A stretch of 64,000 nucleotides of DNA from Antedon mediterranea (Eukaryota > Animalia > Echinodermata): contig NC_092678.1 in the NCBI RefSeq assembly GCF_964355755.1, positions 9,856,352 to 9,920,351 of the forward strand, in the 5' to 3' direction. A program made the translations under genes and the position numbers. Shown piece by piece: positions 1 through 18,974 of this stretch. The notes under the pieces are model-generated. The model searched no databases. It was not told where the DNA came from and saw nothing but the letters and a program-made list of their open reading frames with translations. Positions within the stretch are counted from its first letter, which is position 1; each line of letters starts with the position of its first letter.

Positions 1-3000
1 AAATCACAAAATGGTCTAAAACGTCTCAAAATGCGATTTGAAGGTATTCTGAGCACTTTGGTGTTTTTGTGTGAAAAGTTTTAACGAAATGCTCAAAATT
101 GTCTAAAACGGTTTCTAATGTGATTTTAAGCACTTTGATGTTTTTGTAAAACCAAGTTTCATCGAAATGCACAAAATGGTCTAAAACGTCTCCAAATGCG
201 ATTTAAAGCTATTCTAGACACTTTGATGTTTTGTGTGAAAAAGTTTTCTCGAAATGCTCAAAATGGTCTAAAACGTTTTCCAATTCCATATTAAGCTATT
301 TTGTGCAATTTGATGTTTTTGTGTATCCAAGTTTCATCGAAATGAACAAAATGGTCTAAAACGTTTTTAAATACGATATTAAGCTGTTTTGTGCACTTTG
401 ATGATTTGTGTGAAAAGTTTTAACGAAATGCTCAAAATAGTCTAAAACGGTTTCTAATGTGATTTTAAGCACTTTGATGTTTTTGTGTAACCAAGTTTTT
501 TCGGAAATCACAAAATGGTCTAAAACGTCTCCAAATGCGATTTGAAGCTTTTCTAAGCACTTTGGTGTTTTTATGTTAACAAGTTTTTTCGAAAATCACA
601 AAATGGTCTAAAACGTCTCAAAATGCGATTTGAAGGTAATCTGAGCACTTTGGTGTTTTTGTGTGAAAAGTTTTAACGAAATGCTCAAAATGGTCTAAAA
701 CGGTTTCTAATGTGATTTTAACCACTTTGATGTTTTTGTGTAACCAAGTTCTTTTCGAAAATCACAAAATGGTCTAAAACGTCTCCAAATGCGATTTGAA
801 GCTCTTCTGTACACTTTGATGTTTTGTGTGAAAAAGTTTTGTCGAAATGCTCAAAATGGTCTAAAACGTTTTTAAATACGAAATTAAGCTGTTTTGTGCA
901 CTTTGATGATTTGTGTGAAAAGTTTTAACGAAATGCTCAAAATAGTCTATAACGGTTTCTAATGTGATTTTAAGCACTTTGATGTTTTTGTGTAACCAAG
1001 TTTTTTCGGAAATCACAAAATGGTCTAAAACGTCTCCAAATGCGATTTGAAGCTTTTCTAAGCACTTTGGTGTTTTTATGTTAACAAGTTTTTTCGAAAA
1101 TCACAAAATTGTCTAAAACGTCTCAAAATGCGATTTGAAGGTATTCTGAGCACTTTGGTGTTTTTGTGTGAAAAAAGTTTTGTCGAAATGCTCAAAATGG
1201 TCTAAAACGTTTTTAAAACGATATTAAGCTATTTTGTGCTCTTTGATGTTTTTGTGTAACCAAGTTTTATCGAAATGAACAAAATGGTCTAAAACGTCTC
1301 CAAATGCGATTTGAAGCTTTTCCAAGCACTTTGCTGTTTTTATATTAAGTTTTTTCGAAAATCACAAAATGGTCTAAAACGTCTCTAAATGCGATTTGAA
1401 GGTATTCTGAGCAATTTGGTGTTTTTGTGTGAAAAGTTTTAACGAAATGCTCAAAATTGTCTAAAACGGTTTCTAATGTGATTTTAAGCACTTTGATGTT
1501 TTTGTAAAACCAAGTTTCATCGAAATGCACAAAATGGTCTAAAACGTCTCCAAATGCGATTTGAAGCTATTCTGTACACTTTGATGTTTTGTGTGAAAAA
1601 AGTTTTGTCGAAATGCTCAAAATGGTCTAAAACGTTTTTAAAACGATATTAAGCTATTTTGTGCTCTTTGATGTTTTTGTGTAACCAAGTTTTATCGAAA
1701 TGAACAAAATGGTCTAAAACGTCTCCAAATGCGATTTGAAGCTTTTCCAAGCACTTTGCTGTTTTTATATTAAGTTTTTTCGAAAATCACAAAATGGTCT
1801 AAAACGTCTCTAAATGCGATTTGAAGGTATTCTGAGCAATTTGGTGTTTTTGTGTGAAAAGTTTTAACGAAATGCTCAAAATTGTCTAAAACGGTTTCTA
1901 ATGTGATTTTAAGCACTTTGATGTTTTTGTAAAACCAAGTTTCATCGAAATGCACAAAATGGTCTAAAACGTCTCCAAATGCGATTTGAAGCTATTCTGT
2001 ACACTTTGATGTTTTGTGTGAAAAAAGTTTTGTCGAAATGCTCAAAATGGTCTAAAACGTTTTTAAAACGATATTAAGCTATTTTGTGCTCTTTGATGTT
2101 TTTGTGTAACCAAGTTTTATCGAAATGAACAAAATGGTCTAAAACGTCTCCAAATGCGATTTGAAGCTTTTCCAAGCACTTTGCTGTTTTTATGTTAACA
2201 GGTTTTTTCGAAAATCACAAAATGGTCTAAAACGTCTCAAAATGCGATTTGAAGGTATTCTGAGCACTTTGGTGTTTTTGTGTGAAAAGTTTTAACGAAA
2301 TGCTCAAAATTGTCTAAAACGGTTTCTAATGTGATTTTAAGCACTTTGATGTTTTTGTAAAACCAAGTTTCATCGAAATGCACAAAATGGTCTAAAATGT
2401 CTCCAAATGCGATTTGAAGCTTTTCCAAGCACTTTGCTGTTTTTATGTTAACAAGCTTTTTCGAAAATCACAAAATGGTCTAAAACGTCTCCAAATGTGA
2501 TTTGAAGATATTCTGAGCACTTTGGTGTTTTTATGTTAAAAAGTTTTTTCGAAAATCACAAAATGGTCTAAAACGTCTCCAAATGCGATTTGAAGATATT
2601 CTGAGCACTTTGGTGTTTTTATGTTAAAAAGTTTTTTCGAAAATCACAAAATGGTCTAAAACGTCTCCAAATGCGATTTGAAGCTATTCTGTACACTTTG
2701 ATGTTTTGTGTGAAAAAGTTTTGTCGAAATGCTCAAAATGGTTTAAAACGTTTTTAAAACGATATTAAGCTATTTTGTGCTCTTTGATGTTTTTGTATAA
2801 CCAAGTTTCATCGAAATGCACAAAATGGTCTAAAACGTCTCCAAATACGATTTGAAGCTTTTCCAAGCACTTTGCTGTTTTTATGTTAACAAGTTTTTTC
2901 GAAAATCACAAAATTGTCTAAAACGTCTCAAAATGCGATTTGAAGGTATTCTGAGCACTTTGGTGTTTTTGTGTGAAAAGTTTTAACGAAAAGCTCAAAA

Positions 3001-6000
3001 TGGTCTAAAACGGTTCTAATGTGATTTTAAGCACTTTGATGTTTTTGTACAACCAAGTTTCATCGAAATGCTCAAAATGGTCTAAAACGTTTTTAAAACG
3101 ATATTAAGCTATTTTGTGCTCTTTGATGTTTTTGTGTAACCAAGTTTTTTTCGAAAATCACAAAATGGTCTAAAACGTCTCCAAATGCGATTTGAAGCTT
3201 TTCTAAGCACTTTGGTGTTTTTATGTTAACAAGTTTTTTCGAAAATCGCAAAATGGTCTAAAACGTCTCAAAATGCGATTTGAAGGTATTCTGAGCACTT
3301 TGGTGTTTTTGTGTGAAAAGTTTTAACGAAATGCTCAAAATGGTCTAAAACGGTTTCTAATGTGATTTTAACCACTTTGATGTTTTTGTGTAACCAAGTT
3401 CTTTTCGAAAATCACAAAATGGTCTAAAACGTCTCAAAATGCGATTTGAAGCTTTTCTAAGCACTTTGGTGTTTTTATGTTAACAAGTTTTTTCGAAAAT
3501 CACAAAATGGTCTAAAACGTCTCAAAATGCGATTTGAAGGTATTCTGAGCACTTTGGTGTTTTTGTGTGAAAAGTTTTAACGAAATGCTCAAAATGGTCT
3601 AAAACGGTTTCTAATGTGATTTTAACCACTTTGATGTTTTTGTGTAACCAAGTTTTTTCGAAAATCACAAAATGGTCTAAAACGTCTCCAAATGCGATTT
3701 GAAGCTTTTCTAAGCACTTTGGTGTTTTTATGTTAACAAGTTTTTTCGAAAATCACAAAATGGTCTAAAACGTCTCCAAATGCGATTTGAAGCTATTCTG
3801 TACACTTTGATGTTTTGTGTGAAAAAAGTTTTGTCGAAATGCTCAAAATGGTCTAAAACGTTTTTAAAACGATATTAAGCTATTTTGTGCTCTTTGATGT
3901 TTTTGTGTAACCAAGTTTTATCGAAATGAACAAAATGTTCTAAAACGTCTCCAAATGCGATTTGAAGCTTTTCCAAGCACTTTGCTGTTTTTATGTTAAG
4001 TTTTTTCGAAAATCACAAAATGGTCTAAAACGTCTCTAAATGCGATTTGAAGGTATTCTGAGCACTTTGGTGTTTTTGTGTGAAAAGTTTTAACGAAATG
4101 CTCAAAATTGTCTAAAACGGTTTCTAATGTGATTTTAAGCACTTTGATGTTTTTGTAAAACCAAGTTTCATCGAAATGCACAAAATGGTCTAAAACGTCT
4201 CCAAATGCGATTTGAAGATATTCTGAGGACTTTGGTGTTTTTATGTTAAAAAGTTTTTTCGAAAATCACAAAATGGTCTAAAACGTCTCCAAATGCGATT
4301 TGAAGATATTCTGAGCACTTTGGTGTTTTTATGTTAAAAAGTTTTTTCGAAAATCACAAAATGGTCTAAAACGTCTCCAAATGCGATTTGAAGGTCTTCT
4401 GTACACTTTGATGTTTTGTGTGAAAAAGTTTTTTCAAAATGCTCAAAATGGTCTAAAACGTTTTTAAAACGATATTAAGCTATTTTGTGCTCTTTGATGT
4501 TTTTGTATAACCAAGTTTTTTCGAAAATCACAAAATGGTCTAAAACGTCTCCAAATGCGATTTGAAGCTTTTCCAAGCACTTTGCTGTTTTTATGTTAAC
4601 AAGTTTTTTCGAAAATCACAAAATGGTCTAAAACGTCTCAAAATACGATATTAAGCTGTTTTGTGCACTTTGATGATTTGTGTGAAAAGTTTTAACGAAA
4701 TGCTCAAAATGGTCTAAAACGGTTTCTAATGTGATTTTAAGCACTTTGATGTTTTTATGTAGCCAAGTTTTTTCGAAAATCACAAAATGGTCAAAAACGT
4801 CTCCAAATGTGATTTGAAGCTTTTCTAAGCACTTTGGTTTTTTTATGTTAACAAGTTTTTTCGAAAATCACAAAATGGTCTAAAACGTCTTCAAATGCGA
4901 TTTGAAGATATTCTGAGCACTTTGGTGTTTTTCTGTTAACAATTTTTTTCGAAAATCATAAAATGGTCTAAAACGTCTCCAAATGCGATTTGAAGCTATT
5001 CTGTACACTTTGATGTTTTGTGTGAAAAGTTTTGTCGAAATGCTCAAAATGGTCTAAAACGTTTTTAAAACGATATTAAGCTATTTTGTGCTCTTTGATG
5101 TCTTTGTGTAACCAAGTTTCATCGAAATGAACAAAATGGTCTAAAACGTCTCCAAATGCGATTTGAAGCTTTTCTAAGCACTTTGGTGTTTTTATGTTAA
5201 CAAGTTTTTTCGAAAATCACAAAATGGTCTAAAACGTCTCCAAATGCGATTTGAAGCTTTTCTAAGCACTTTGGTGTTTTTATGTTAACAAGTTTTTTCG
5301 AAAATCACAAAATGGTCTAAAACGTCTCAAAATGCGATTTGAAGGTATTCTGAGCACTTTGGTGTTTTTGTGTGAAAAGTTTTAACGAAATGCTCAAAAT
5401 GGTCTAAAACGGTTTCTAATGTCATTTTAACCACTTTGATGTTTTTGTGTAACCAAGTTCTTTTCGAAAATCACAAAATGGTCTAAAACGTCTCCAAATG
5501 CGATTTGAAGCTCTTCTGTACACTTTGATGTTTTGTGTGAAAAAGTTTTGTCGAAATGCTCAAAATGGTCTAAAACGTTTTTAAATACGATATTAAGCTG
5601 TTTTGTGCACTTTGATGATTTGTGTGAAAAGTTTTAACGAAATTCTCAAAATAGTCTATAACGGTTTCTAATGTGATTTTAAGCACTTTGATGTTTTTGT
5701 GTAATCAAGTTTTTTTGGAAATCACAAAATGGTCTAAAACGTCTCCAAATGCGATTTGAAGCTTTTCTAAGCACTTTGGTGTTTTTATGTTAACAAGTTT
5801 TTTCGAAAATCACAAAATGGTCTAAAACGTCTCAAAATGCGATTTGAAGGTATTCTGAGCACTTTGGTGTTTTTGTGTGAAAAGTTTTAACGAAATGCTC
5901 AAAATGGTCTAAAACGGTTTCTAATGTGATTTTAACCACTTTGATGTTTTTGTGTAACCAAGTTTTTTCGAAAATCACAAAATGGTCTAAAACGTCTCCA

Positions 6001-9000
6001 AATGCGATTTGAAGCTATTCTGTACACTTTGATGTTTTGTGTGAAAAAAGTTTTGTCGAAATGCTCAAAATGGTCTAAAACGTTTTTAAAACGATATTAA
6101 GCTATTTTATGCTCTTTGATGTTTTTGTGTAACCAAGTTTTTTCGAAAATCACAAAATTGTCTAAAACGTCTCCGAATGCGATTTGAAGCTCTTCTGTAC
6201 ACTTTGATGTTTTGTGTGAAAAAGTTTTCTCGAAATGCTAAAAATGGTATAAAAACGTTTTCCAATACCATATTAAGCTATTTTGTGCAATTTGATGTTT
6301 TTGTGTAACCAAGTTTTTTCGAAAATCACAAAATTGTCTAAAACGTCTCCGAATGCGATTTGAAGCTCTTCTGTACACTTTGATGTTTTGTGTGAAAAAG
6401 TTTTTTCGAAATGCTAAAAATGGTCTAAAACGTTTTCCAATACCATATTAAGCTATTTTGTGCAATTTGATGTTTTTGTGTAACAAAGTTTTTTCGAAAA
6501 TCACAAAATGGTCTAAAACGTCTCCAAATGCGATTTGAAGATATTCTGAGCACTTTGGTGTTTTTATGTTAAAAAGTTTTTTGGAAAATCACAAAATGGT
6601 CTAAAACGACTCCAAATGCGATTTGAAGCTATCCTGTACACTTTGATGTTTTGTGTGAAAAAGTTTTGTCGAAATGCTCAAAATGATCTAAAACGTTTTT
6701 AAAACGATATTAAGCTATTTTGTGCTCTTTGATGTTTTTGTGTATCCAAGTTTCATCGAAATGAACAAAATGGTCTAAAACGTCTCCAAATGCGATTTGA
6801 AAGTATTCTGAGCACTTTGGTGTTTTTGTGTGAAAAGTTTTAACGAAATGCTCAAAATGGTCTAAAACGGTTTCTAATGTGATTTTAACCACTTTGATGT
6901 TTTTGTGTAACCAAGTTCTTTTCGAAAATCACAAAATGGTCTAAAACGTCTCCAAATGCGATTTGAAGCTTTTCTAAGCACTTTGGTGTTTTTATGTTAA
7001 AAAGTTTTTTCGAAAATCACAAAATGGTCTAAAACGTCTCCAAATGCGATTTGAAGCTCTTCTTTACACTTTGATGTTTTGTGTGAAAAAGTTTTGTCGA
7101 AATGCTCAAAATGGTCTAAAACGTTTTTAAATACGATATTAAGCTGTTTTGTGCACTTTGATGATTTGTGTGAAAAGTTTTAACGAAATGTTCAAAATAG
7201 TCTAAAACGGTTTCTAATGTGATTTTAAGCACTTTGATGTTTTTGTGTAACCAAGTTTTTTCGGAAATCACAAAATGGTCTAAAACGTCTCAAAATGCGA
7301 TTTGAAGCTTTTCTAAGCACTTTGGTGTTTTTATGTTAACAAGTTTTTTCGAAAATCACAAAATGGTCTAAAATTTCTCAAAATGCGATTGAAGGTATTC
7401 TGAGCACTTTGGTGTTTTTGTGTGAAAAGTTTTAACGAAATGCTCAAAATGGTCTAAAACGGTTCTAATGTGATTTTAAGCACTTTGATGTTTTTGTATA
7501 ACCAAGTTTCATCGAAATGCTCAAAATGATGTAAAACGTTTTTAAAACGATATTAAGCTATTTTGTGCTCTTTGATGTTTTTGTGTAACCAAGTTTTTTC
7601 GAAAATCACAAAATGGTCTAAAACGTCTCCAAATGCGATTTGAAGCTTTTCTAAGCACTTTGGTGTTTTTATGTTAACAAGTTTTTTCGAAAATCACAAA
7701 ATGGTCTAAAACGTCTCAAAATGCGATTTGAAGGTATTCTGAGCACTTTGGTGTTTTTGTGTGAAAAGTTTTAACGAAATGCTCAAAATGGTCTAAAACG
7801 GTTTCTAATGTGATTTTAACCACTTTGATGTTTTTGTGTAACCAAGTTTTTTCGAAACTCACAAAATGGTCTAAAACGTCTCCAAATGCGATTTGAAGCT
7901 TTTCTAAGCACTTTGGTGTTTTTATGTTAACAAGTTTTTTCGAAAATCACAAAATGGTCTAAAACGTCTCAAATAGCGATTTGAAGCTATTCTGTACACT
8001 TTGATGTTTTGTGTGAAAAAAGTTTTGTCGAAATGCTCAAAATGGTCTAAAACGTTTTTAAAACGATATTAAGCTATTTTATGCTCTTTGATGTTTTTGT
8101 GTAACCAAGTTTTTTCGAAAATCACAAAATTGTCTAAAACGTCTCCGAATGCGATTTGAAGCTCTTCTGTACACTTTGATGTTTTGTGTGAAAAAGTTTT
8201 CTCGAAATGCTAAAAATGGTATAAAAACGTTTTCCAATACCATATTAAGCTATTTTGTGCAATTTGATGTTTTTGTGTAACCAAGTTTTTTCGAAAATCA
8301 CAAAATTGTCTAAAACGTCTCCGAATGCGATTTGAAGCTCTTCTGTACACTTTGATGTTTTGTGTGAAAAAGTTTTTTCGAAATGCTAAAAATGGTCTAA
8401 AACGTTTTCCAATACCATATTAAGCTATTTTGTGCAATTTGATGTTTTTGTGTAACAAAGTTTTTTCGAAAATCACAAAATGGTCTAAAACGTCTCCAAA
8501 TGCGATTTGAAGATATTCTGAGCACTTTGGTGTTTTTATGTTAAAAAGTTTTTTGGAAAATCACAAAATGGTCTAAAACGACTCCAAATGCGATTTGAAG
8601 CTATCCTGTACACTTTGATGTTTTGTGTGAAAAAGTTTTGTCGAAATGCTCAAAATGGTCTAAAACGTTTTTAAATACGATATTAAGCTGTTTTGTGCAC
8701 TTTGATGATTTGTGTGAAAAGTTTTAACGAAATGTTCAAAATAGTCTAAAACGGTTTCTAATGTGATTTTAAGCACTTTGATGTTTTTGTGTAACCAAGT
8801 TTTTTCGGAAATCACAAAATGGTCTAAAACGTCTCAAAATGCGATTTGAAGCTTTTCTAAGCACTTTGGTGTTTTTATGTTAACAAGTTTTTTCGAAAAT
8901 CACAAAATGGTCTAAAACGTCTCAAAATGCGATTGAAGGTATTCTGAGCACTTTGGTGTTTTTGTGTGAAAAGTTTTAACGAAATGCTCAAAATGGTCTA

Positions 9001-12000
9001 AAACGGTTCTAATGTGATTTTAAGCACTTTGATGTTTTTGTATAACCAAGTTTCATCGAAATGCTCAAAATGATGTAAAACGTTTTTAAAACGATATTAA
9101 GCTATTTTGTGCTCTTTGATGTTTTTGTGTAACCAAGTTTTTTCGAAAATCACAAAATGGTCTAAAACGTCTCCAAATGCGATTTGAAGCTTTTCTAAGC
9201 ACTTTGGTGTTTTTATGTTAACAAGTTTTTTCGAAAATCACAAAATGGTCTAAAACGTCTCAAAATGCGATTTGAAGGTATTCTGAGCACTTTGGTGTTT
9301 TTGTGTGAAAAGTTTTAACGAAATGCTCAAAATGGTCTAAAACGGTTTCTAATGTGATTTTAACCACTTTGATGTTTTTGTGTAACCAAGTTTTTTCGAA
9401 AATCACAAAATGGTCTAAAACGTCTCCAAATGCGATTTGAAGCTTTTCTAAGCACTTTGGTGTTTTTATGTTAACAAGTTTTTTCGAAAATCACAAAATG
9501 GTCTAAAACGTCTCAAATAGCGATTTGAAGCTATTCTGTACACTTTGATGTTTTGTGTGAAAAAAGTTTTGTCGAAATGCTCAAAATGGTCTAAAACGTT
9601 TTTAAAACGATATTAAGCTATTTTGTGCTCTTTGATGTTTTTGTGTAACCAAGTTTTATCGAAATGAACAAAATGGTCTAAAACGTCTCCAAATGCGATT
9701 TGAAGCTTTTCCAAGCACTTTGCTGTTTTTATGTTAACAAGTTTTTTCGAAAATCACAAAATGGTCTAAAACATCTCCAAATGCGATTTGAAGATATTCT
9801 GAGCACTTTGGTGTTTTTATGTTAAAAAGTTTTTTCGAAAATCACAAAATGGTCTAGAACGTCTCCAAATGCGATTTGAAGCTCTTCTGTACACTTTGAT
9901 GTTTTGTGTGAAAAAGTTTTGTCAAAATGCTCAAAATGGTCTAAAACGTTTTTAAAACGATATTAAGCTATTTTGTGCTCTTTGATGTTTTTGTATAACC
10001 AAGTTTTTTCGAAAATCACAAAATGGTCTAAAACGTCTCCAAATGCGATTTGAAAATATTCTGAGCACTTTGGTGTTTTTATGTTAAAAAGTTTTTTCGA
10101 AAATCACAAAATGGTCTAAAACGTCTCCAAATGCGATTTGAAGATATTCTGAGCACTTTGGTGTTTTTATGTTAAAAAGTTTTTTCGAAAATCACAAAAT
10201 GGTCTAAAACGTCTCCAAATGCGATTTGAAGCTATTCTATACACTTTGATGTTTTGTGTTAAAAAGTTTTGTCGAAATGCTCAAAATGGTTTAAAACGTT
10301 TTTAAAACGATATTAAGCTATTTTGTGCTCTTTGATGTTTTTGTGTAACCAAGTTTCATCGAAATGAACAAAATGGTCTAAAACGTCTCCAAATGCGATT
10401 TGAAGCTTTTCCAAGCACTTTGCTGTTTTTATGTTAACAAGTTTTTTCGAAAATCACAAAATTGTCTAAAACGTCTCAAAATGCGATTTGAAGGTATTCT
10501 GAGCACTTTGGTGTTTTTGTGTGAAAAGTTTTAACGAAAAGCTCAAAATGGTCTAAAACGGTTCTAATGTGATTTTAAGCACTTTGATGTTTTTGTACAA
10601 CCAAGTTTCATCGAAATGCTCAAAATGGTCTAAAACGTTTTTAAAACGATATTAAGCTATTTTGTGCTCTTTGATGTTTTTGTGTAACCAAGTTTTTTCG
10701 AAAATCACAAAATGGTCTAAAACGTCTCCAAATGCGATTTGAAGCTTTTCTAAGCACTTTGGTGTTTTTATGTTAACAAGTTTTTTCGAAAATCACAAAA
10801 TGGTCTAAAACGTCTCAAAATGCGATTTGAAGGTATTCTGAGCACTTTGGTGTTTTTGTGTGAAAAGTTTTAACGAAATGCTCAAAATGGTCTAAAACGG
10901 TTTCTAATGTGATTTTAACCACTTTGATGTTTTTGTGTAACCAAGTTTTTTCGAAAATCACAAAATGGTCTAAAACGTCTCCAAATGCGATTTGAAGCTT
11001 TTCTAAGCACTTTGGTGTTTTTATGTTAACAAGTTTTTTCGAAAATCACAAAATGGTCTAAAACGTCTCCAAATGCGATTTGAAGATATTCTGAGCACTT
11101 TGGTGTTTTTCTGTTAAAAAGTAATTTCGAAAATCACAAAATGGTCTAAAACGTCTCCAAATGCAATTTGAAGCTATTCTGTACACTTTGATGTTTTGTG
11201 TGAAAAAGTTTTGTCAAAATGCTCAAAATGGTCTAAAACGTTTTTAAAACGATATTAAGCTATTTTGTGCTCTTTGATGTTTTTGTATAACCAAGTTTTT
11301 TCGAAAATCACAAAATGGTCTAAAACGTCTCCAAATGCGATTTGAAGCTTTTCTAAACACTTTGGTGTTTTTATGTTAACAAGTTTTTTCGAAAATCACA
11401 AAATGGTCTAAAACGTCTCCAAATCCGATTTGAAGCTATTCTGTACACTTTGATGTTTTGTGTGAAAAAGTTTTGTCGAAATGCTCAAAATGGTCTAAAA
11501 CGTTTTTAAAACGATATTAAGCTATTTTGTGCTCTTTGATGTTTTTGTGTAACCAAGTTTCATCGATATGAACAAAATGGTCTAAAACGTCTCAAAATGC
11601 GATTTGAAGGTATTCTGAGCACTTTGGTGTTTTTGGGTGAAAAGTTTTAACGAAATGCTCAAAATGGTCTAAAACGGTTTCTAATGTGATTTTAAGCACT
11701 TTGAAGTATTTGTAAAAACAAGTTTCATCGAAATGCACAAAATAGTCTAAAACGTCTCCAAATGCGATTTGAAGCTTTTCTAAGCACTTTGGTGTTTTTA
11801 TGTTAACAAGTTTTTTCGAAAATCACAAAATGGTCTAAAACGTCTCCAAATGCGATTTGAAGATATTCTGAGCACTTTGCTGTTTTTATGTTAACATGTT
11901 TTTTCGAAAATCACAAAATGGTCTAAAACGTCTCAAAATGCTATTTGAAGGTATTCTGAGCACTTTGGTGTTTTTGTGTGAAAAGTTTTAACGAAATGCT

Positions 12001-12120
12001 CAAAATGGTCTAAAACGGTTCTAATGTGATTTTAAACACTTTGATGTTTTGTGTGAAAAAGTTTTGTCAAAATGCTCAAAATGGTCTAAAACGTTTTTAA
12101 AACGATATTAAGCTATTTTG
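1..12120. repeat. AT-rich tandem satellite array, left arm (~86-88 bp monomers plus a 77-78 bp variant)
   Basis: The anchor AAAATGGTCTAAAACG and its variants recur at 11, 98, 176, 263, 351, 437, 515 and 603 (spacings 87, 78, 87, 88, 86, 78, 88) and continue in one orientation up to the element junction. Confidence 0.98.
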
Positions 12121-12263
12121 ACACATGTGAGCCCGATAAACAAAAACCAAGGAAACGAGTATTGGTTGAAAAGTTATTTAATATGAATGGCAAGTCATCG
12201 TTGCAACATGCACGTAAAAGGAGAACATAAAAAAGGAACATTGGGATGCTCTGAAAGGGCCAA
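12121..12263 (-). repeat. Split direct repeat B2 (3' terminus)
   Basis: Copy of B1 at the left satellite junction. Confidence 0.95.
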
Positions 12264-12321
12264 AACACATGTCTCAAAATCGTAATTGAAAAAAAACAAA
12301 AGATAGGGAGTGGAGGGAGGG

Positions 12322-12448
12322 AAATAAAAATTATTTTACTTAGCCAAAATCTGGCGTGGTAATCTGTTGACAGCGTGAGGTGAAGAGGATGAGATGCTCA
12401 CGCTGTCAAAAGATGATTGCGAGGGCGCCCCGCAATCACGTGATTTTG
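12322..12448 (-). repeat. Split direct repeat A2
   Basis: 127-bp copy of A1 that directly abuts B1 through ATTTTG (12443-12448). Confidence 0.95.
12443..12448. other. Predicted recombination core ATTTTG at the B1/A2 (circle-junction) boundary
   Basis: The same hexamer is at the left end (12115-12120), at the right end (18969-18974) and as a single copy at the empty paralogous site (60091-60096). Confidence 0.85.
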
Positions 12449-12590
12449 ACACATGTGAGCCCGATAAACAAAAACCAAGGAAACGAGTATTGGTTGAAAA
12501 GTTATTTAATATGAATGGCAAGTCATCGTTGCAACATGCACGTAAAAGGAGAACATAAAAAGGAACATTGGGATGCTCTGAAAGGGCCAA
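12449..12590 (-). repeat. Split direct repeat B1
   Basis: ACACATGTGAGCCCGATAAAC...CTGAAAGGGCCAA matches 12121-12263 except for one homopolymer length (A5 versus A6). Confidence 0.95.
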
Positions 12591-12689
12591 CACAGGTGGC
12601 AACGAAGGGGCCAACGAAGCAGCCCAAATTAAGTGCAGGTAGAATCGATGACAAGCCATTCAGATCAAACCGAAACAATGAAGCATGAT

Positions 12690-13234
12690 GGTGCAACATA
12701 TGTTGACACCCAGAACGTATAGAAACTATCTACATAGTCTACCTGGAGCAACATGTGTTGACTCCAGTACATGTTTAAACATTTTGATTAGGTAGGCAGT
12801 GCAACCAAATGTTGACATGGAAAAACGTATAGAAACAATCAACATCAGTCTGCCTGGGGCAACATGTGTTGACTCCAGTACGCGTTTGAATTGAGTTTAA
12901 TAAACGGTGCAACCACGTTGACACCAAAAAGATATAAATAACTTATGAGTCTACCTGGAGCAACATGCGTTGACTCCAGTCGTGTTTAAACATTTTAATT
13001 AGGTAGGCAGTGCAACCAAATGTTGACACCGAAAAACGTATAGAAACAATCAACATCAGTCTGCCTGGGGCAACATGTGTTGACTCCAGTACGCGTTTGA
13101 ATTGAGTTTAGTAAACGGTGCAACCACGTTGACACCAAAAAGATATAAATAACTTATGAGTCTACCTGGAGCAATGTGTTGACTCCGATTGAACATATGA
13201 TTGTAATTTGGCGGTGCAACCTATGCTGACACCG
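12690..13234. repeat. Array of 11 alternating bulged-hairpin repeats with ~25-35 nt spacers in the 3' non-coding region of the element
   Basis: GGTG-CAAC-N3-5-GTTG-A-CACC type at 12690, 12798, 12906, 13009, 13117 and 13213. (CT)GGRG-CAAC-ATGY-GTTG-A-CTCC(AG) type at 12745, 12856, 12957, 13067 and 13168. Period 45-58 bp, with a recent 211-bp duplication. Confidence 0.9.
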
Positions 13235-13357
13235 AAAGAAAACACAAATGAAATAAGTAAAACAATAAACTGAAAAAATAAGTATCAACTTCGTTTAAGC
13301 TTGATGCTTAATACCCAGTCATGCTTAGGAAATATGCCAACCAGCCAGCACCCATGT

Positions 13358-14248
13358 TTACAACGCTGTATTTGACAAAGTTATGTGGTTCGGTCTGATG
13401 TACCGCTTGAAAGCACTACTCGACCATCGTCCAAAAATCATAATGTCTTGGTGAGAGTGTCCCAGTTGGTGAAGGTCAGTAGCTCGACCGATTCTGAAAG
13501 AATGAGTGTTAAACTGTGTATGTTCCAGACTGGCACGCCGAGCTAATTGTTTTAGCGACGAGGAAAACATTTTTCTATTCACCGGTGTTCCATTTTCAAG
13601 CAGGAAGAACGGGCCTGCCTTCAGTGGTCGCATCTTGACGTAGCGTTGCAATGCTCTCACTGGGCATATGGGACTTCCAGATTTTTGGTGCAAGACGAAA
13701 GGAGGTGACGAACGCTTAGAGTGTTTGAAAGATTTGAAGTTTATTTGCACTTTAGTGGCATGTACTGTGATATCAGTTAGCATTAGTGTGTGTTCTGCGG
13801 CCTTGGAGACTACTGCTTCACTGGCTCTGAGGCATGCGAAGTAACATATTATGAACAAGGCTCTGTAGAGAATAAATTCGTATTTGGATTTCATGCTACC
13901 TCGCATATGTCCAATTAGCGTTACAAGAATGTCGGAGGTGACCAGCAGTCTGATCGGTTTGGATGGAGAGTTCGTTTTTTGTTTTGTTACTCCTCTGCAT
14001 AAAATGCTGACTGCTGGATTTGTGGTGGGGTCTTCCATAAATGATGCCCTGTGCACGAATGACACTGCGCTAAGGTAGTTTCGAATCGTGGAAATCGCCA
14101 GTGCATTTTTAGTCAGCTTACTTACATAGAGAACAATTGTCTGTGGAGTCGCTGGTAGCGGAAGGCTTAGTGATTTCCTGAATTGGTTAAAATGGTGCCA
14201 TTTGCTTTTATAGTTACTAGCGGTTCCTTTGCTTAATGAGTTCCACAT
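13358..14248 (-). CDS. Tyrosine recombinase, 296 aa
   Basis: N-terminal core-binding helices (STIRNYLSAVSFVH). Catalytic set: R (ACLRASE), K (KSFKH), HxxR (HSFRIG), W (GRW) and Y (FKRYIR). Confidence 0.96.
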   Translation of the reverse strand: MWNSLSKGTASNYKSKWHHFNQFRKSLSLPLPATPQTIVLYVSKLTKNALAISTIRNYLSAVSFVHRASFMEDPTTNPAVSILCRGVTKQKTNSPSKPIRLLVTSDILVTLIGHMRGSMKSKYEFILYRALFIICYFACLRASEAVVSKAAEHTLMLTDITVHATKVQINFKSFKHSKRSSPPFVLHQKSGSPICPVRALQRYVKMRPLKAGPFFLLENGTPVNRKMFSSSLKQLARRASLEHTQFNTHSFRIGRATDLHQLGHSHQDIMIFGRWSSSAFKRYIRPNHITLSNTAL

Positions 14249-16230
14249 TAGCTCTCGTGTGAGGGTCTTGAGTTGTTTAGTGGTTCGAAGTTGATTGGTT
14301 GTAAGTGCTTTGGTATCTTTAGCGGTGTGCGGTTCATACTGTGCTCCTTTAGCATGGCCTCCGTTTCCTGAAAACGAGAAAGAGCGTCACATATCTTGTT
14401 TTGCTTACCAGGGATGTGCCTAGCTGTAAACTGAATGTTGTTTAGTAGTAACAAAAGGACGATAGCGCGAACCACTATCATGACCTTTTCGTTTGATGAC
14501 GATTTCTTGTTAAGCACATATACATCAGCTAGGTTATCACAGTGGAAAACTACATGGGTGTTGGCTAGCTGTTTTGCAAAAATCGAAAGCATGACATAGA
14601 TTGGGTAAATTTCGAGAACCATGATGTCGAACATTTTCCAAGATTCCGGCCAGCGGCCTTGAATCCAGAACTTTTGGAAGGTCGCACCAAATGCGGTTTT
14701 TGAGGCATCAGAGTAGAAATGTAAACGCTGCGAGTCAAATTTTTGAGGGGGTGAAAAAATGGTAACGCCATTGTGTTTGCTAAGAAAGTCGGCCCAGATT
14801 TGGAGATCCTCCTTTGCAGAGTCAGAAAGGTGAATATTTGAAAATGGGTTAGTTAGACCGGCCGTCAGGGCATATAGCCTTCTTAGGAACGCCCGTCCAG
14901 ATGGTATAACGCAGGTGGCAAATTGTAGCTTTCCAATTAGAGATTGGAGGGCTCTCAAAGTAGTTGACTGAAGTGTGAGGAAGTTTTGAACTTCAACGGA
15001 GTAGCGTAATAATTTTTCAGGTGGGAGCCTGGCTTCCATTTTTTGTGAATCAAGTTCAATACCAAGAAAAGAAATTGTGGTGGTGGGCGAAATTGTTTTG
15101 TGCGGTGCTAGAGGTATGCCTACGCGGTCAGCAAGCGCCTTGAATGTTTTCAAAGATTTCGCACACAGTTGTTGTGTGTCTTCAATAAAGAGGAAGTCAT
15201 CTAACATTTTCACGTTATTGGGCCGTTGTAACTTTTTTGTAAGGATATATTTCACTCCGTCCGAAAACTTATTGAATATTTGACACGAAGATCCGCCGCC
15301 CTGGGGAAGCATTTTATCGTAGTAAAACTGGCCTAACCACGTGAAACCCGTGAGGTGGTATTGAGTGGGGTGTAAAGGTATTAGTCTGTATGCGTCACTG
15401 ATGTCCGTCTTAGCCATGAATGCCGGGTAATTGCGTTTGTTTATTATGTCAATTGCGTTGGCAATTGTTTCGTAATTAACTGTTTTAGAAATCTCAGGGA
15501 TGTTGTAATTGACAGAGTTTGTGTCGTAGGGATAAGATAGGTTGTGGAGGATACGAAATTTTCCGGGTACGGATTTTTCTCTTAGGTTAAGGGGTGATGC
15601 TTTAAAATGGTCAAATGGTGGGTGGGTAAATGGTCCAGCTATGCGTCCCAGAGATATCTCTTTTGTCAGTTTTTTGGAGAAGGTGTCGGGGTTGTTGATG
15701 ATAGCTGGGGAGTTATTTGCTGTAAAAGCAGCCTCAGGTCCGTTAAATTCAAGGTAGAAACCATGAGTGAAACCTTGGGTTAAGTAAGCGTGGTGTTTGA
15801 AACCAGATAGGAGTGCACTTAATCTAGAAGGAATTATTGGAGAAAGCAGAACATCGCTATTTTTTTGCTTGTGGGGGCCCTGATGATTGGCGAGTTTGGA
15901 GTGGTGGATGGGGCTCAGAGAGTGGGCGGTTTGCGCCGCGAATAGGTTGTTGAAAGCTGTTTTGTTGGTTTTGTTGGTAAGTTTGCTGACCGTATGCCTG
16001 TCGGTTGGTGAAGTTGTTTTGGTGCGATGGTGTTCGGTTACATCTGTGGATTGGATGGGGTCCCGAGCACTGAAAACAGGAGTGGCGATATTGACAGTTT
16101 GTCTGGGCACATCTAGTGAATCGGTTATGATAGGAGATACAGAAGCCGAGTGGGATACGAAAATTGTTCCGAAACCGAGTGGACGCTCTACGGCTGGATG
16201 GGTTAGAGGTTTGTGGTGTGCTCGTTGCAT
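14248..16230 (-). CDS. pol: Reverse transcriptase / RNase H (DIRS/Ngaro type)
   Basis: RT motifs KFRILHNLSYP, AKTDISDAYRLIP, MLPQG and KMLDDFL. RNase H motifs FYSDASK, VLEIYPI, HCDN and HIPGKQNKICDALSR. First ATG at 16230 (16233 is TTG). The true start is uncertain because the N-terminus overlaps gag by ~375 nt. Confidence 0.95.
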   Translation of the reverse strand: MQRAHHKPLTHPAVERPLGFGTIFVSHSASVSPIITDSLDVPRQTVNIATPVFSARDPIQSTDVTEHHRTKTTSPTDRHTVSKLTNKTNKTAFNNLFAAQTAHSLSPIHHSKLANHQGPHKQKNSDVLLSPIIPSRLSALLSGFKHHAYLTQGFTHGFYLEFNGPEAAFTANNSPAIINNPDTFSKKLTKEISLGRIAGPFTHPPFDHFKASPLNLREKSVPGKFRILHNLSYPYDTNSVNYNIPEISKTVNYETIANAIDIINKRNYPAFMAKTDISDAYRLIPLHPTQYHLTGFTWLGQFYYDKMLPQGGGSSCQIFNKFSDGVKYILTKKLQRPNNVKMLDDFLFIEDTQQLCAKSLKTFKALADRVGIPLAPHKTISPTTTISFLGIELDSQKMEARLPPEKLLRYSVEVQNFLTLQSTTLRALQSLIGKLQFATCVIPSGRAFLRRLYALTAGLTNPFSNIHLSDSAKEDLQIWADFLSKHNGVTIFSPPQKFDSQRLHFYSDASKTAFGATFQKFWIQGRWPESWKMFDIMVLEIYPIYVMLSIFAKQLANTHVVFHCDNLADVYVLNKKSSSNEKVMIVVRAIVLLLLLNNIQFTARHIPGKQNKICDALSRFQETEAMLKEHSMNRTPLKIPKHLQPINFEPLNNSRPSHES

Positions 16231-17002
16231 CAAGTTTATGAAGGAGGTCGGCTCGAACCGACGACCAGGAGCAAAGTGTGTACTCCCTAGCCATTCGAAA
16301 TTGTCGGTCGTAAAAGTACCATGAATTTGGATGAGTGCGCATGAGGTCTTTAATATACTTAAAATAAGTAAAGATGTCCTGCGTGTGTTGCGGGTGTTTA
16401 CTCAAATAAATTGTCGCGAAGTCGCAAAAGGCCTGATGCCAGTTGTGTTCGTTTAAGATGCGGCGTTTGGGCTTAGGCACAAGTTCGAATGTACCAGTGT
16501 ACGTTAGCGTGAATGTTTCCGCTGCGCTGTTTGAGTCGAGCAGGTCGTGCAGCTCGATGAATTTGTGGGAGATTATTTTCTCCTTAAGTTTTTCTGAGAC
16601 AATTGCCCCGGCCTTAATCCCACCGGAAAACTCCAAGGGATTTGAGATTGCGCTGCCTTCGGCTAATTTAAAAGGACTATTTAGCTTGTCTTGGTCCTCA
16701 AACGCAAACATTGACGAGGTAGATGGACTGTGGGCTTCGGCATTGTTGGCTGGCGGGATGGTGTCTCCGTGTAAAGGATTTGGCTGGGGGGTTTCAGAAA
16801 GAGGGTTGCCGGGAGGTTCGTCCTGATTGTTCGGCTTACCGGCCCTAATCTCAGCCACGGAAGTTACAAGGGTTTCGACAATATGCCTCATGTCCTTTAG
16901 TTCTTTATTTATGTCAAGTTCAGGTACCGGCACAGGTGTAGTTTTTTTCTTTTTTGGCGCCGTCTTTTTTGGCCTCTGGCTAGTTCTTTTCCGTCCTGAC
17001 AT
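15857..17002 (-). CDS. gag: Gag-like ORF1 nucleic-acid-binding protein, ~381 aa
   Basis: ATG at 17002 (MSGRKRTSQRPKKTAPKKKK, basic and NLS-like), a putative coiled coil, a WYFYDRQFR motif, and a C-terminal CCCH plus CCHC-like zinc cluster (C-x9-C-x4-C-x3-H-S-C-x2-C-x3-H-x4-C). It precedes and overlaps the RT ORF. Confidence 0.85.
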   Translation of the reverse strand: MSGRKRTSQRPKKTAPKKKKTTPVPVPELDINKELKDMRHIVETLVTSVAEIRAGKPNNQDEPPGNPLSETPQPNPLHGDTIPPANNAEAHSPSTSSMFAFEDQDKLNSPFKLAEGSAISNPLEFSGGIKAGAIVSEKLKEKIISHKFIELHDLLDSNSAAETFTLTYTGTFELVPKPKRRILNEHNWHQAFCDFATIYLSKHPQHTQDIFTYFKYIKDLMRTHPNSWYFYDRQFRMAREYTLCSWSSVRADLLHKLDATSTPQTSNPSSRRASTRFRNNFRIPLGFCISYHNRFTRCAQTNCQYRHSCFQCSGPHPIHRCNRTPSHQNNFTNRQAYGQQTYQQNQQNSFQQPIRGANRPLSEPHPPLQTRQSSGPPQAKK

Positions 17003-17098
17003 AGTGTATCTGTAAGAAAATCTTTGTGCAATGAAGATGGGAAGAAAAGTGTGTGGACGGATATCATCAAATTGCAGGGGGCGGTGGGTTAGAGAAAG

Positions 17099-17867
17099 AA
17101 CCAGCACGATTCATTTAATGAAATGCTGTACTTAAGAGCATGAGTGATAAAACGCTGCCGTATGTGGGGGTAGGTAATGAACCAGCATAAGAAATTATGT
17201 GGTAGTAATAGGGGAACCAGCATGAGTCATATAATGAATGCTGTACTTAAGAGCGTGAGTGATAAAACGCCGCCGTATGTGGGGGTAGGTAATGAACCAG
17301 CATAAGAAATTATGTGGTGGTAGTAGGGGGACCAGCATGAGTCATATAATGAATGCTGTACTTGTGATAAGACACCGCCGTATGAGGGGGTGGGTAATGA
17401 ACCAGCATAAGAAATTATGTGGTGGTAGTAGGGGAACCAGCATGAGTCATATAATGAATGCTGTACTTAAGAGCATGAGTGATAAAACACCGCCGTATGT
17501 GGGGGTAGGTAATGAACCAGCATAAGAAATTATGTGGTGGTAGTAGGGGGACCAGCATGAGTCATATAATGAATGCTGTACTTGTGATAAAACACCGCCG
17601 TATGTGGGGGTAGGTAATGAACCAGCATAAGAAATTATGTGGTGGTAGTAGGGGGACCAGCATGAGTCATATAATGAATGCTGTACTTAAGAGCATGAGG
17701 GATAAAATACCGCCGAATGTGGGGGTGGGTAATGAACCAGCATAAGAAATTATGTGGTGGTAGTAGGGTTAATGAACTAGCATAAGTAATTATGTGGTGG
17801 TAGTAGGGAAACCAGTATGAGTCATATAATGAATGCTGTACTTAGGAGCATGAGTGATAAAACACCG
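17099..17867. repeat. Internal minisatellite with alternating 115/105-bp units (~6.5 units) between the hydrolase and gag
   Basis: The anchor TATGTGGGGGT and its variants occur at 17161, 17276, 17381, 17496, 17601 and 17716. The short units lack AAGAGCATGA. Confidence 0.95.
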
Positions 17868-17995
17868 GAATTTTCTTGAATGTAATTATAAAGGTTAAAT
17901 AGTTTCGATTAGCATGAATGGTGTCAACAATGTATTGCCTGGCAGCTTATACTAACCTTGATGAGAGGATTTTGTTTTGTTTTTTCGTTTTAATT

Positions 17996-18012
17996 ATGTA
18001 TTTATTTATTTT
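17996..18012 (-). promoter_or_regulatory. Candidate polyadenylation signals (overlapping AATAAA) downstream of the hydrolase ORF
   Basis: Plus-strand TTTATTTATT at 18001-18010 reads AATAAATAAA on the sense strand, about 80 nt after the hydrolase stop. The region is AT-rich, so this may be chance. Confidence 0.3.
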
Positions 18013-18086
18013 TCTCCAAAATCCGGTTCCGGTTTGTCCACAGTGACTGCAGTAGGGAAAATAACAGATAATAATATTGTTGTTAT

Positions 18087-18716
18087 TTAGTGGCATGATT
18101 TAGCATAAGAGGCTCCGTGCATTAAAGCAGACCTTAGGGACGCCTTATATCTTTTTCGTCCATTTGTGGAGTTGGGATGGAGACCATCATTTGACCACAG
18201 AGAAATGGGGTTTGCCCAGAAGCCGGGATGGGTATGGTAGTGAAGGCCATGAGTTTTGCGGCAGAACTCGCGTAGGAAACCGTTGAAATCGTGAATGCGC
18301 TCGTTAAACAAAGGAGGGGGGAGGTGGCCAGTGTGAGATAATCGGAACGTCTGTGAGCAGAGAGAAGTCCGAATTGGTGTCCAGATGGGAAAAATATAGG
18401 TCAAAAGAATTTCGAAGAGGTAGTTTGCCGCCGACCAAGCATCCGAATCAACGAGGTCATTCGATCCGAGGTCGATGATCAAGATATCTGGCTTGAATGT
18501 TGCCAATCGATTTACAAAATTAGTTAGGTCGTTAATCTTTAGACCGGGTACCCCCCAAAGAACAGTATTATCGTAGTGATGGCTGATTCGGAAGTCAGAC
18601 AAAGGTCGGTGTGGACCAAGTATGGAGCCGGAAGAATTACCCAAGCCGTGATGGAAAGCGAGGCTGTCGCTCAAACCGGAAACGAATGAGTGGCCTAGGA
18701 CACAACCAGACAACAT
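18087..18716 (-). CDS. SGNH/GDSL-family hydrolase (esterase-like), ~209 aa from the first ATG
   Basis: Block I VLGHSFV (GDS-like, catalytic Ser), block II WGVPG, block III IIDLGSNDL, block V NDGLHPN (DxxH). The ORF-track start at 18782 is TTG; the first ATG is at 18716 (MLSGCVLGHSF). Confidence 0.88.
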   Translation of the reverse strand: MLSGCVLGHSFVSGLSDSLAFHHGLGNSSGSILGPHRPLSDFRISHHYDNTVLWGVPGLKINDLTNFVNRLATFKPDILIIDLGSNDLVDSDAWSAANYLFEILLTYIFPIWTPIRTSLCSQTFRLSHTGHLPPPLFNERIHDFNGFLREFCRKTHGLHYHTHPGFWANPISLWSNDGLHPNSTNGRKRYKASLRSALMHGASYAKSCH

Positions 18717-18847
18717 AATTACAAAAAGTACGAAAATTCGGAAAATGGGGGTAAGATAAGGTGTGAGATAAATTTCAGTCAAACAATGTTGTGTGTTGGC
18801 ACAAATCCTACCAGTGTAGGAGGATAAAAGGGACTGGTAAAATGTAA

Positions 18848-18974
18848 AAATAAAAATTATTTTACTTAGCCAAAATCTGGCGTGGTAATCTGTTGACAGC
18901 GTGAGGTGAAGAGGATGAGATGCTCACGCTGTCAAAAGATGATTGCGAGGGCGCCCCGCAATCACGTGATTTTG
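18848..18974 (-). repeat. Split direct repeat A1 (5' terminus, 127 bp including the core)
   Basis: Identical by eye to 12322-12448 (AAATAAAAATTATTTTACTTAGCC...CGCAATCACGTGATTTTG). Confidence 0.95.

Follow-up and report, generated by a model that had tools for sequence, protein, structure and literature searches.

Arrays of bulged hairpins beside the tyrosine recombinase gene of an Ngaro retrotransposon of Antedon mediterranea and its relatives

Introduction

The window analysed here, a 64-kb stretch of DNA from the echinoderm Antedon mediterranea, holds a run of regularly spaced palindromes beside the tyrosine recombinase (YR) gene of a retroelement, and this raises the question of whether they are a by-product of tandem duplication or a structure that selection has kept. 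The sequence-only reading of the locus considered them to be a structure-selected module of the retroelement and offered three functions, namely multivalent binding sites for Gag or reverse transcriptase (RT), a precursor of ~50-nt small RNAs, and recombinase-binding hairpins on the cDNA. We examined the array itself, its other copies and the corresponding interval in related families, and weighed these and other explanations against the results.

Results

The array lies in an ordinary Ngaro element

The window is filled by an 88-bp satellite (31% GC), into which an element on the minus strand is inserted at 12115-18974. Self-comparison of the element gave the repeat order A1-ORFs-B1-A2-B2, with split direct repeats (Table 1). 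The gag, RT/RNase H (RT/RH) and YR reading frames overlap on one strand and a Pfam scan of the four long ORFs detected no methyltransferase domain, both being Ngaro traits. Here gag was assigned by its position and zinc finger, the RNase H label is presumed from architecture and recall rather than a profile match, and the YR shares 99% identity with a protein labelled Antedon mediterranea. The flanks of the element rebuild the commonest satellite site around a common ATTTTG core, and this fits recombinase integration without target duplication, again an Ngaro trait. The element may belong to a satellite-targeted family, judging from a single copy and a target site that is present 87 times in the window.

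Table 1. Features of the element, in window coordinates
Feature	Position	Strand	Remarks
B2, split direct repeat, element 3' end	12115..12267	-	98.7% identical to B1 over 153 bp
A2, split direct repeat	12322..12448	-	ATTTTG core at B1/A2 junction, 12443-12448, common to satellite target
B1, split direct repeat	12443..12594	-	Contains ATTAAA, candidate poly(A) signal
Array of 11 bulged hairpins, between YR and B1	12690..13233	-	Period 45-58 bp, two alternating types
YR ORF, open	13358..14386	-	PF00589, E 1.6e-06
RT/RNase H ORF, open, overlaps gag and YR	14248..16401	-	PF00078, E 7.7e-12
Gag-like ORF, C-terminal tandem CCCH + CCHC zinc finger	15857..17110	-	Candidate hairpin reader
Second tandem array, between hydrolase and gag	17098..17867	-	Periods 105/115/220, 89-95% identical copies
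SGNH/GDSL hydrolase ORF, upstream of gag	18087..18923	-	PF13472, E 3.4e-09
A1, split direct repeat	18848..18974	-	127 bp, identical to A2

Ngaro elements, a superfamily of DIRS-order tyrosine-recombinase retrotransposons, are described in 10.1101/2021.08.05.455354, PMC8547959 and PMC3783388 as having an SGNH hydrolase in addition to split direct repeats and the gag, RT/RH and YR genes, and the window element is the same in its A1-[ORFs]-B1-A2-B2 order and in all four genes. It is thus an intact, ordinary member of this superfamily. It differs from amphibian Ngaro elements, whose hydrolase follows YR according to 10.1101/2021.08.05.455354, in having the hydrolase upstream of gag. Among the relatives described below, the upstream position was also seen in L004, L017, L027, L046, L057 and L077-L080, and a hydrolase directly after YR in L015, L050 and, by eye, L026; the hairpin detector gave no convincing array after YR in these last three.

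Other repeats and hairpins were observed within the element. The A repeats hold two strong hairpins, one a 13-bp stem with a 17-nt loop and the other a 12-bp stem adjoining the junction. Units of the second tandem array contain three weak hairpins, mostly better folded on the plus strand, with no covariation seen, and this array looks like a recent ordinary expansion; short tandem repeats occupy the hydrolase-gag interval of L009 and L017 as well. Behind the hydrolase ORF, a sequence at 17918-17940 resembles the array unit in part and in inverted orientation; its lower stem is poor, the covariance model did not find it, and the likeness is probably due to chance.

Eleven bulged hairpins in two alternating types

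The units start at 12690, 12745, 12798, 12856, 12906, 12957, 13009, 13067, 13117, 13168 and 13213. On the plus strand the unit reads stem4-CAAC-loop-GTTG-A-stem4, which on the sense strand becomes a lower stem of 4-6 bp, an unpaired U on the 5' side, a CAAC/GUUG upper stem and a loop of 3-5 nt. The earlier description of eleven palindromic units every 45-58 bp, adjoining YR, was confirmed, with the strict stem4-stem4-bulge pattern found in nine hairpins within 12660-13270, whereas 500 shuffles had 0.75 on average and never more than 4. Likewise, the GGTG/CACC and GGAG/CTCC types do alternate strictly through all 11 units. In the alignment of these units 88.8% of 89 cells are paired, and the covariation score of 0.20 (0.12 shuffled) was reached by 2/500 shuffles. 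However, only 2/10 pairs changed on both sides, a count that 363/500 shuffles also reached, and covariation inside the window is modest.

The build that had been thought near-universal holds in general, with two exceptions: unit 3 reads AGTG...CATG, so that its lower stem is broken in the window copy, and the upper stem of unit 10 has only 3 bp. Unit 3 had been read as AGTG/CACC, forming a G-U pair on the sense RNA, which is incorrect; the window's letter at 12819 in this unit is absent from all contigs of four runs that were aligned to it, although contigs of unit 7 may lie there. GGGG/CTCC, previously counted as a single deviation, occurs in both unit 4 and unit 8, gives A-C mismatches on the sense strand and is common to contigs of runs X2 and X6.

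TRF recognises the array as a plain tandem repeat (periods 110 and 211). It has a ~105-bp dimer and a 211-bp higher-order repeat, and it grew by tandem duplication of the ~105-bp dimer. A separate observation concerns the spacers, where the end of an odd spacer can pair with the end of the next even spacer (12737-12744/12790-12797 and 12949-12956/13001-13008; 8 bp on the plus strand, one wobble); a variant spacer keeps 7 bp of this pairing, which is possibly a higher-order fold.

Stems outlast spacers

We compared stems and spacers over 16 non-independent unit pairs, leaving out four recent-duplicate pairs. Stems were identical at 250/272 positions (92%) and spacers at 355/544 (65%; shuffled about 50%), so that hairpins and spacers have not diverged equally. 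Spacers after odd units are 69-81% alike and those after even units, apart from recent duplicates, 48-66% alike (shuffles about 50%). The view that spacers have diverged far more than hairpins is therefore upheld, but not their division into several distinct families, since they are homologous within each class.

These values bear on the proposal that the array is CRISPR-like or a precursor of guide or small RNAs. It does have a repeat-spacer look, and other copies supplied one new spacer variant. However, spacers of a guide array should be unique and derived from, or matching, targets, whereas these are diverged duplicates of each other, as the odd class makes clear. Furthermore, when they were compared with the satellite and with the remainder of the element, within the window, the longest exact matches were at chance level in 11/12 tests, the exception being an A-rich 12-mer reached by 3/200 shuffles. 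We consider a CRISPR-like, guide or small-RNA precursor array scarcely credible here.

Contigs of other runs contain one further spacer type, an altered unit order and some pairing defects, including changed bulge letters, one broken closing pair and one degenerate GGAG/CATC unit. Of 34 classified substitutions in these contigs, 24 fell in spacers, seven in stems, two in the bulge and one in a loop. Neutral tandem expansion of a unit that chanced to hold a hairpin would accommodate such variation in order and content, including the variants that break pairing, as well as the tandem-repeat nature of the array and the presence of a second, ordinary tandem array in the same element. Neutral drift does not, however, spare stems over spacers.

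Analogous arrays in related families

A YR-alignment search of metagenomes yielded at least 371 confirmed loci, of which the best 80 were used. Grouped at 85% YR identity, these make up 54 families in addition to the window, and their YRs are 26-43% identical to that of the window. A blind detector for same-tip hairpins after YR was applied to families with at least 200 nt, 18 shorter families being dropped. At least three such hairpins were detected in 9/37 families with the window included (8/36 without), compared with 0/35 coding controls and 0/111 shuffles, and at least two in 20/37 families, compared with 6/35 and 9/111, respectively. The blind detector found fewer than three in the other 28/37 families, examples being L037 and L070, which have a zinc-finger Gag and in which it detected no array. 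Six of the eight relatives with arrays fall within one clade, here called type 2 (SH-aLRT 99), in a quick YR-only tree, which was built without named reference elements and with L032, L061, L066, L074 and L075 left out.

The type-2 clade keeps the bulge and a GC-ANGG-GC tip. This pattern has 41 sites in the 27.9 kb of 3' DNA, compared with 12 in the 203 kb of other sequence; it and the other tip patterns were picked by eye after the sequences were viewed. Two near-duplicates among the 42 units were set aside, and in the remaining 40 units 85.7% of cells are paired, and 60 cells changed on both sides compared with 20.4 in shuffles (0/500 reaching this number; the control ignores relatedness). 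By eye, three hairpins of L001 combine a U bulge, 4 bp and a 4-nt loop and show a compensatory change, reproducing the window's geometry in a different sequence, while bulged repeats were also seen in L002, L003, L011, L013, L030 and L034, and other repeated tips in L007, L012, L017, L019 and L078. Hairpin geometry thus recurs among families and the sequence is family-specific. The bulge letter is family-uniform in 38/40 units (shuffled mean 29.2; 0/5000) and the loop in 34/40 (0/5000 shuffles), with the flanks of the hairpins only 57% identical within families. Family-uniform tips can also come from within-family duplication, and a tip-uniformity test that excludes such duplication gave only 4/6. 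In L007, L009 and L080 the family's own hairpin is repeated in a second non-coding interval, which in L007 and L009 follows the hydrolase ORF; the covariance model found no second-interval copy in the window.

This model, made from the window units, matched only the window, with nothing under E 1 in 54 loci, and so the arrays may not be homologous. CAAC/GUUG tips occur in the window, L003 and L078, but we do not claim their homology, as the model matches the window only and the three are scattered on the tree. Of 67 pattern matches to YR relatives in viral contigs none was confirmed, and a two-hairpin pattern had no match in viral contigs or genome contigs. Rfam likewise gave no match at gathering score in the element, with two weak snoRNA matches outside the array (E 0.92 and 3.5), and none in the 20 of the 80 relatives' loci that were scanned.

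Taken with stems that outlast spacers, analogous arrays with clear covariation in related families bear out the idea of a structure-selected module, and the array is very probably a selected RNA structure. The expectation that related families would have an array with covariation was only partly borne out, as several families are without one. Neutral tandem expansion does not account for distant families having covarying arrays in the same place; it is already largely disfavoured, and we consider it very unlikely.

In the type-2 clade a second conserved element follows downstream of the array, as does an AATAAA plus hairpin in L027 and L047. This second element, GGGTGGGG(C/T)...GCCC(T/A/G)CACC with an inner hairpin, is found 30-770 nt after the YR stop in L024, L027, L035, L039, L047, L048, L057, L072 and L077, has no Rfam match in the scanned loci and is possibly a pseudoknot or multi-stem RNA. 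A further motif, CTCACT(A/T)(C/T)GTGA, sits in a larger stem 19-84 nt after the YR stop in L004, L011, L013 and L014, and is similar to the TCACGTGA palindrome that adjoins the junction core of the window. In L080, positions 1258-10988 hold two tandem copies of a 6089-bp element that are 99.97% identical, either as a true tandem or a collapsed assembly.

Strand preference of the hairpins

The window was said to leave the functional strand undecided, and our energies agree, as neither strand is favoured by its units (mean difference 0.03 kcal/mol). Folding of the whole array is dominated by pairing between units, with z -2.4 for the sense and -4.2 for the plus strand, so that the sense strand is not favoured here either. 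Among relatives, the two pairs under the type-2 bulge are, on the sense strand, 43 Watson-Crick, 25 G-U, 0 A-C and two other in 35 distinct units. As the 25 G-U pairs become A-C mismatches on the antisense, type-2 hairpins point to the element RNA and not to cDNA. Furthermore, the sense strand folds better in 21/25 loci, using hand-picked motifs and with nine loci from one clade. With ATTAAA in the window's B1/B2 as poly(A) candidates downstream, the array likely sits in the 3' UTR, judging from the order of these signals.

The strand also matters for the proposal that the units are attC-like, that is, hairpins on single-stranded cDNA bound by YR. Integron attC hairpins have an extrahelical base and lie close to the gene of a tyrosine recombinase, and the same is true of the window array, whose units fold about equally well on both strands. 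DIRS-1 also produces single-stranded cDNA, which is antisense according to PMC7192593, and in combination with the sense G-U bias of relatives this disfavours cDNA hairpins, by inference from those relatives. In addition, about 240 bp separate the array from the crossover core, which is at the B1/A2 junction, and there is no sign of cassettes or of cassette-like spacer acquisition. We do not place the array among integron attC sites, and regard recombinase-binding hairpins on cDNA as highly improbable.

Candidate readers of the hairpins

The C-terminal tandem CCCH + CCHC finger of Gag has cysteines and histidines that are at least 90% conserved in 24 sequences. Its best PDB sequence match is the CCCH finger of tristetraprolin, which is RNA-binding, at E 0.0028 (above E 0.001). 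Pfam gave no match for the window Gag and no Gag relatives were found among longer proteins. For a structure model of Gag (pLDDT 83), no match in Foldseek reached E 0.001; the fold searches, with a best Z of 5.0 and no capsid fold recognised, were uninformative. The RT of DIRS-1 acts in trans, as stated in PMC7192593, and an RNA recognition signal in cis would therefore be expected. Uniform family-specific tips, second-interval copies, the conserved finger and a trans-acting RT together favour an element-encoded reader, with Gag the first candidate, over a host protein, RT or YR. We put the chance that Gag reads the hairpins at about even, as a prediction from sequence features, and of the three functions first proposed for the array, multivalent protein binding on the element RNA fits best.

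A host RNA-binding protein might instead read the hairpins, or they might protect the RNA, with effects on translation, localisation (for example in the germ line) or decay. Such mRNA control would fit the probable 3' UTR position upstream of candidate poly(A) signals and the repeated hairpin after the hydrolase ORF in L007 and L009, and all of the structure evidence applies to it equally. However, a fixed host reader should favour one tip, whereas tips differ among families, even on contigs sharing an assembly prefix (L002, L009, L010 and L017), although assemblies may hold more than one host. A host reader or a protective role therefore appears unlikely.

Hepadnavirus epsilon is a bulged stem-loop for RT recruitment and priming, and by analogy the hairpins could recruit RT or set priming near the 3' end. 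The array is indeed near the 3' repeats, and in PMC7192593 the primer of DIRS-order elements is given as unknown and a 3' hairpin is suggested for this purpose. Against this, one site suffices for priming, a one-base bulge offers little template, priming within the array would lose B1-A2-B2, and the extra hairpin copies of L007, L009 and L080 lie far from the 3' end. A role in RT recruitment or priming is in our judgement quite unlikely.

Discussion

The hairpin array is a real, structure-selected and lineage-wide feature that has apparently gone undescribed so far. The sequence-only reading knew of no such array in Ngaro elements, and we too found no description of a structured hairpin array in an Ngaro/DIRS tail in full-text literature searches, although these repeats may be mentioned in the founding papers by Goodwin and Poulter, in Repbase reports or in supplements. 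A term look-up in the available text of PMC7192593, 10.1101/2021.08.05.455354, PMC6681497, PMC3783388, PMC8547959, PMC6281560, PMC5633606, PMC3266345 and PMC4157794 gave no hairpin arrays.

Several stem-loops sharing a motif on variable stems, as in a packaging array, are present here, and by analogy the array may work like multiple packaging signals. The MS2 TR hairpin and other packaging signals of ssRNA viruses, as presented in PMC6281560, share with the Ngaro arrays several stem-loops, a 5' bulged base, a recognition tip and variable stems, and the bulge, 2 bp and tetraloop of the type-2 hairpin can be likened to MS2 TR in particular. The Ngaro hairpins differ in being clustered in a 3' non-coding array of a retrotransposon, with no sequence relation to the viral signals and a Gag role that is predicted. 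A second comparison is with Psi of retroviruses and LTR elements. The stem-loops of Psi are read by Gag zinc knuckles; they are situated in the 5' leader and comprise a small number of distinct hairpins, whereas the Ngaro signal would consist of as many as 11 like units arrayed at the 3' end, with a finger of the CCCH + CCHC type. Both systems have a zinc-finger Gag (CH-box, PMC6681497) and a structured cis signal on the element RNA.

Our preferred explanation, which we hold at even chances and which relies on sequence comparison, is that the array may be a multivalent, family-specific RNA tag read by Gag for packaging or RNP selection. The array would be transcribed as part of the element's 3' UTR and its bulged hairpins would fold on the element's own sense RNA, where the zinc fingers of the element's Gag would bind the bulge and tip at many sites per RNA; this reading by Gag would then select the tagged RNA for particle assembly and copying. 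More tentatively, and with the balance of our judgement somewhat against it, there could be a co-evolving RNA address code in which each Ngaro family has an array of bulged hairpins of its own and only the Gag zinc finger of that family reads it.

As the hairpin is compact, repeated and family-specific and the candidate reader domain is small, the proposal is directly testable with synthetic RNA and a ~45-residue peptide. YR relatives number in the thousands (2,786 clusters at E 1e-30 or better), enough for large-scale mapping of any hairpin-finger code, from which new RNA tags might be obtained. If the address code is true, the missing RNA-selection signal of the DIRS order would be identified, and these families would constitute a natural library of orthogonal hairpin-protein pairs, like the MS2/PP7 tags but eukaryotic.
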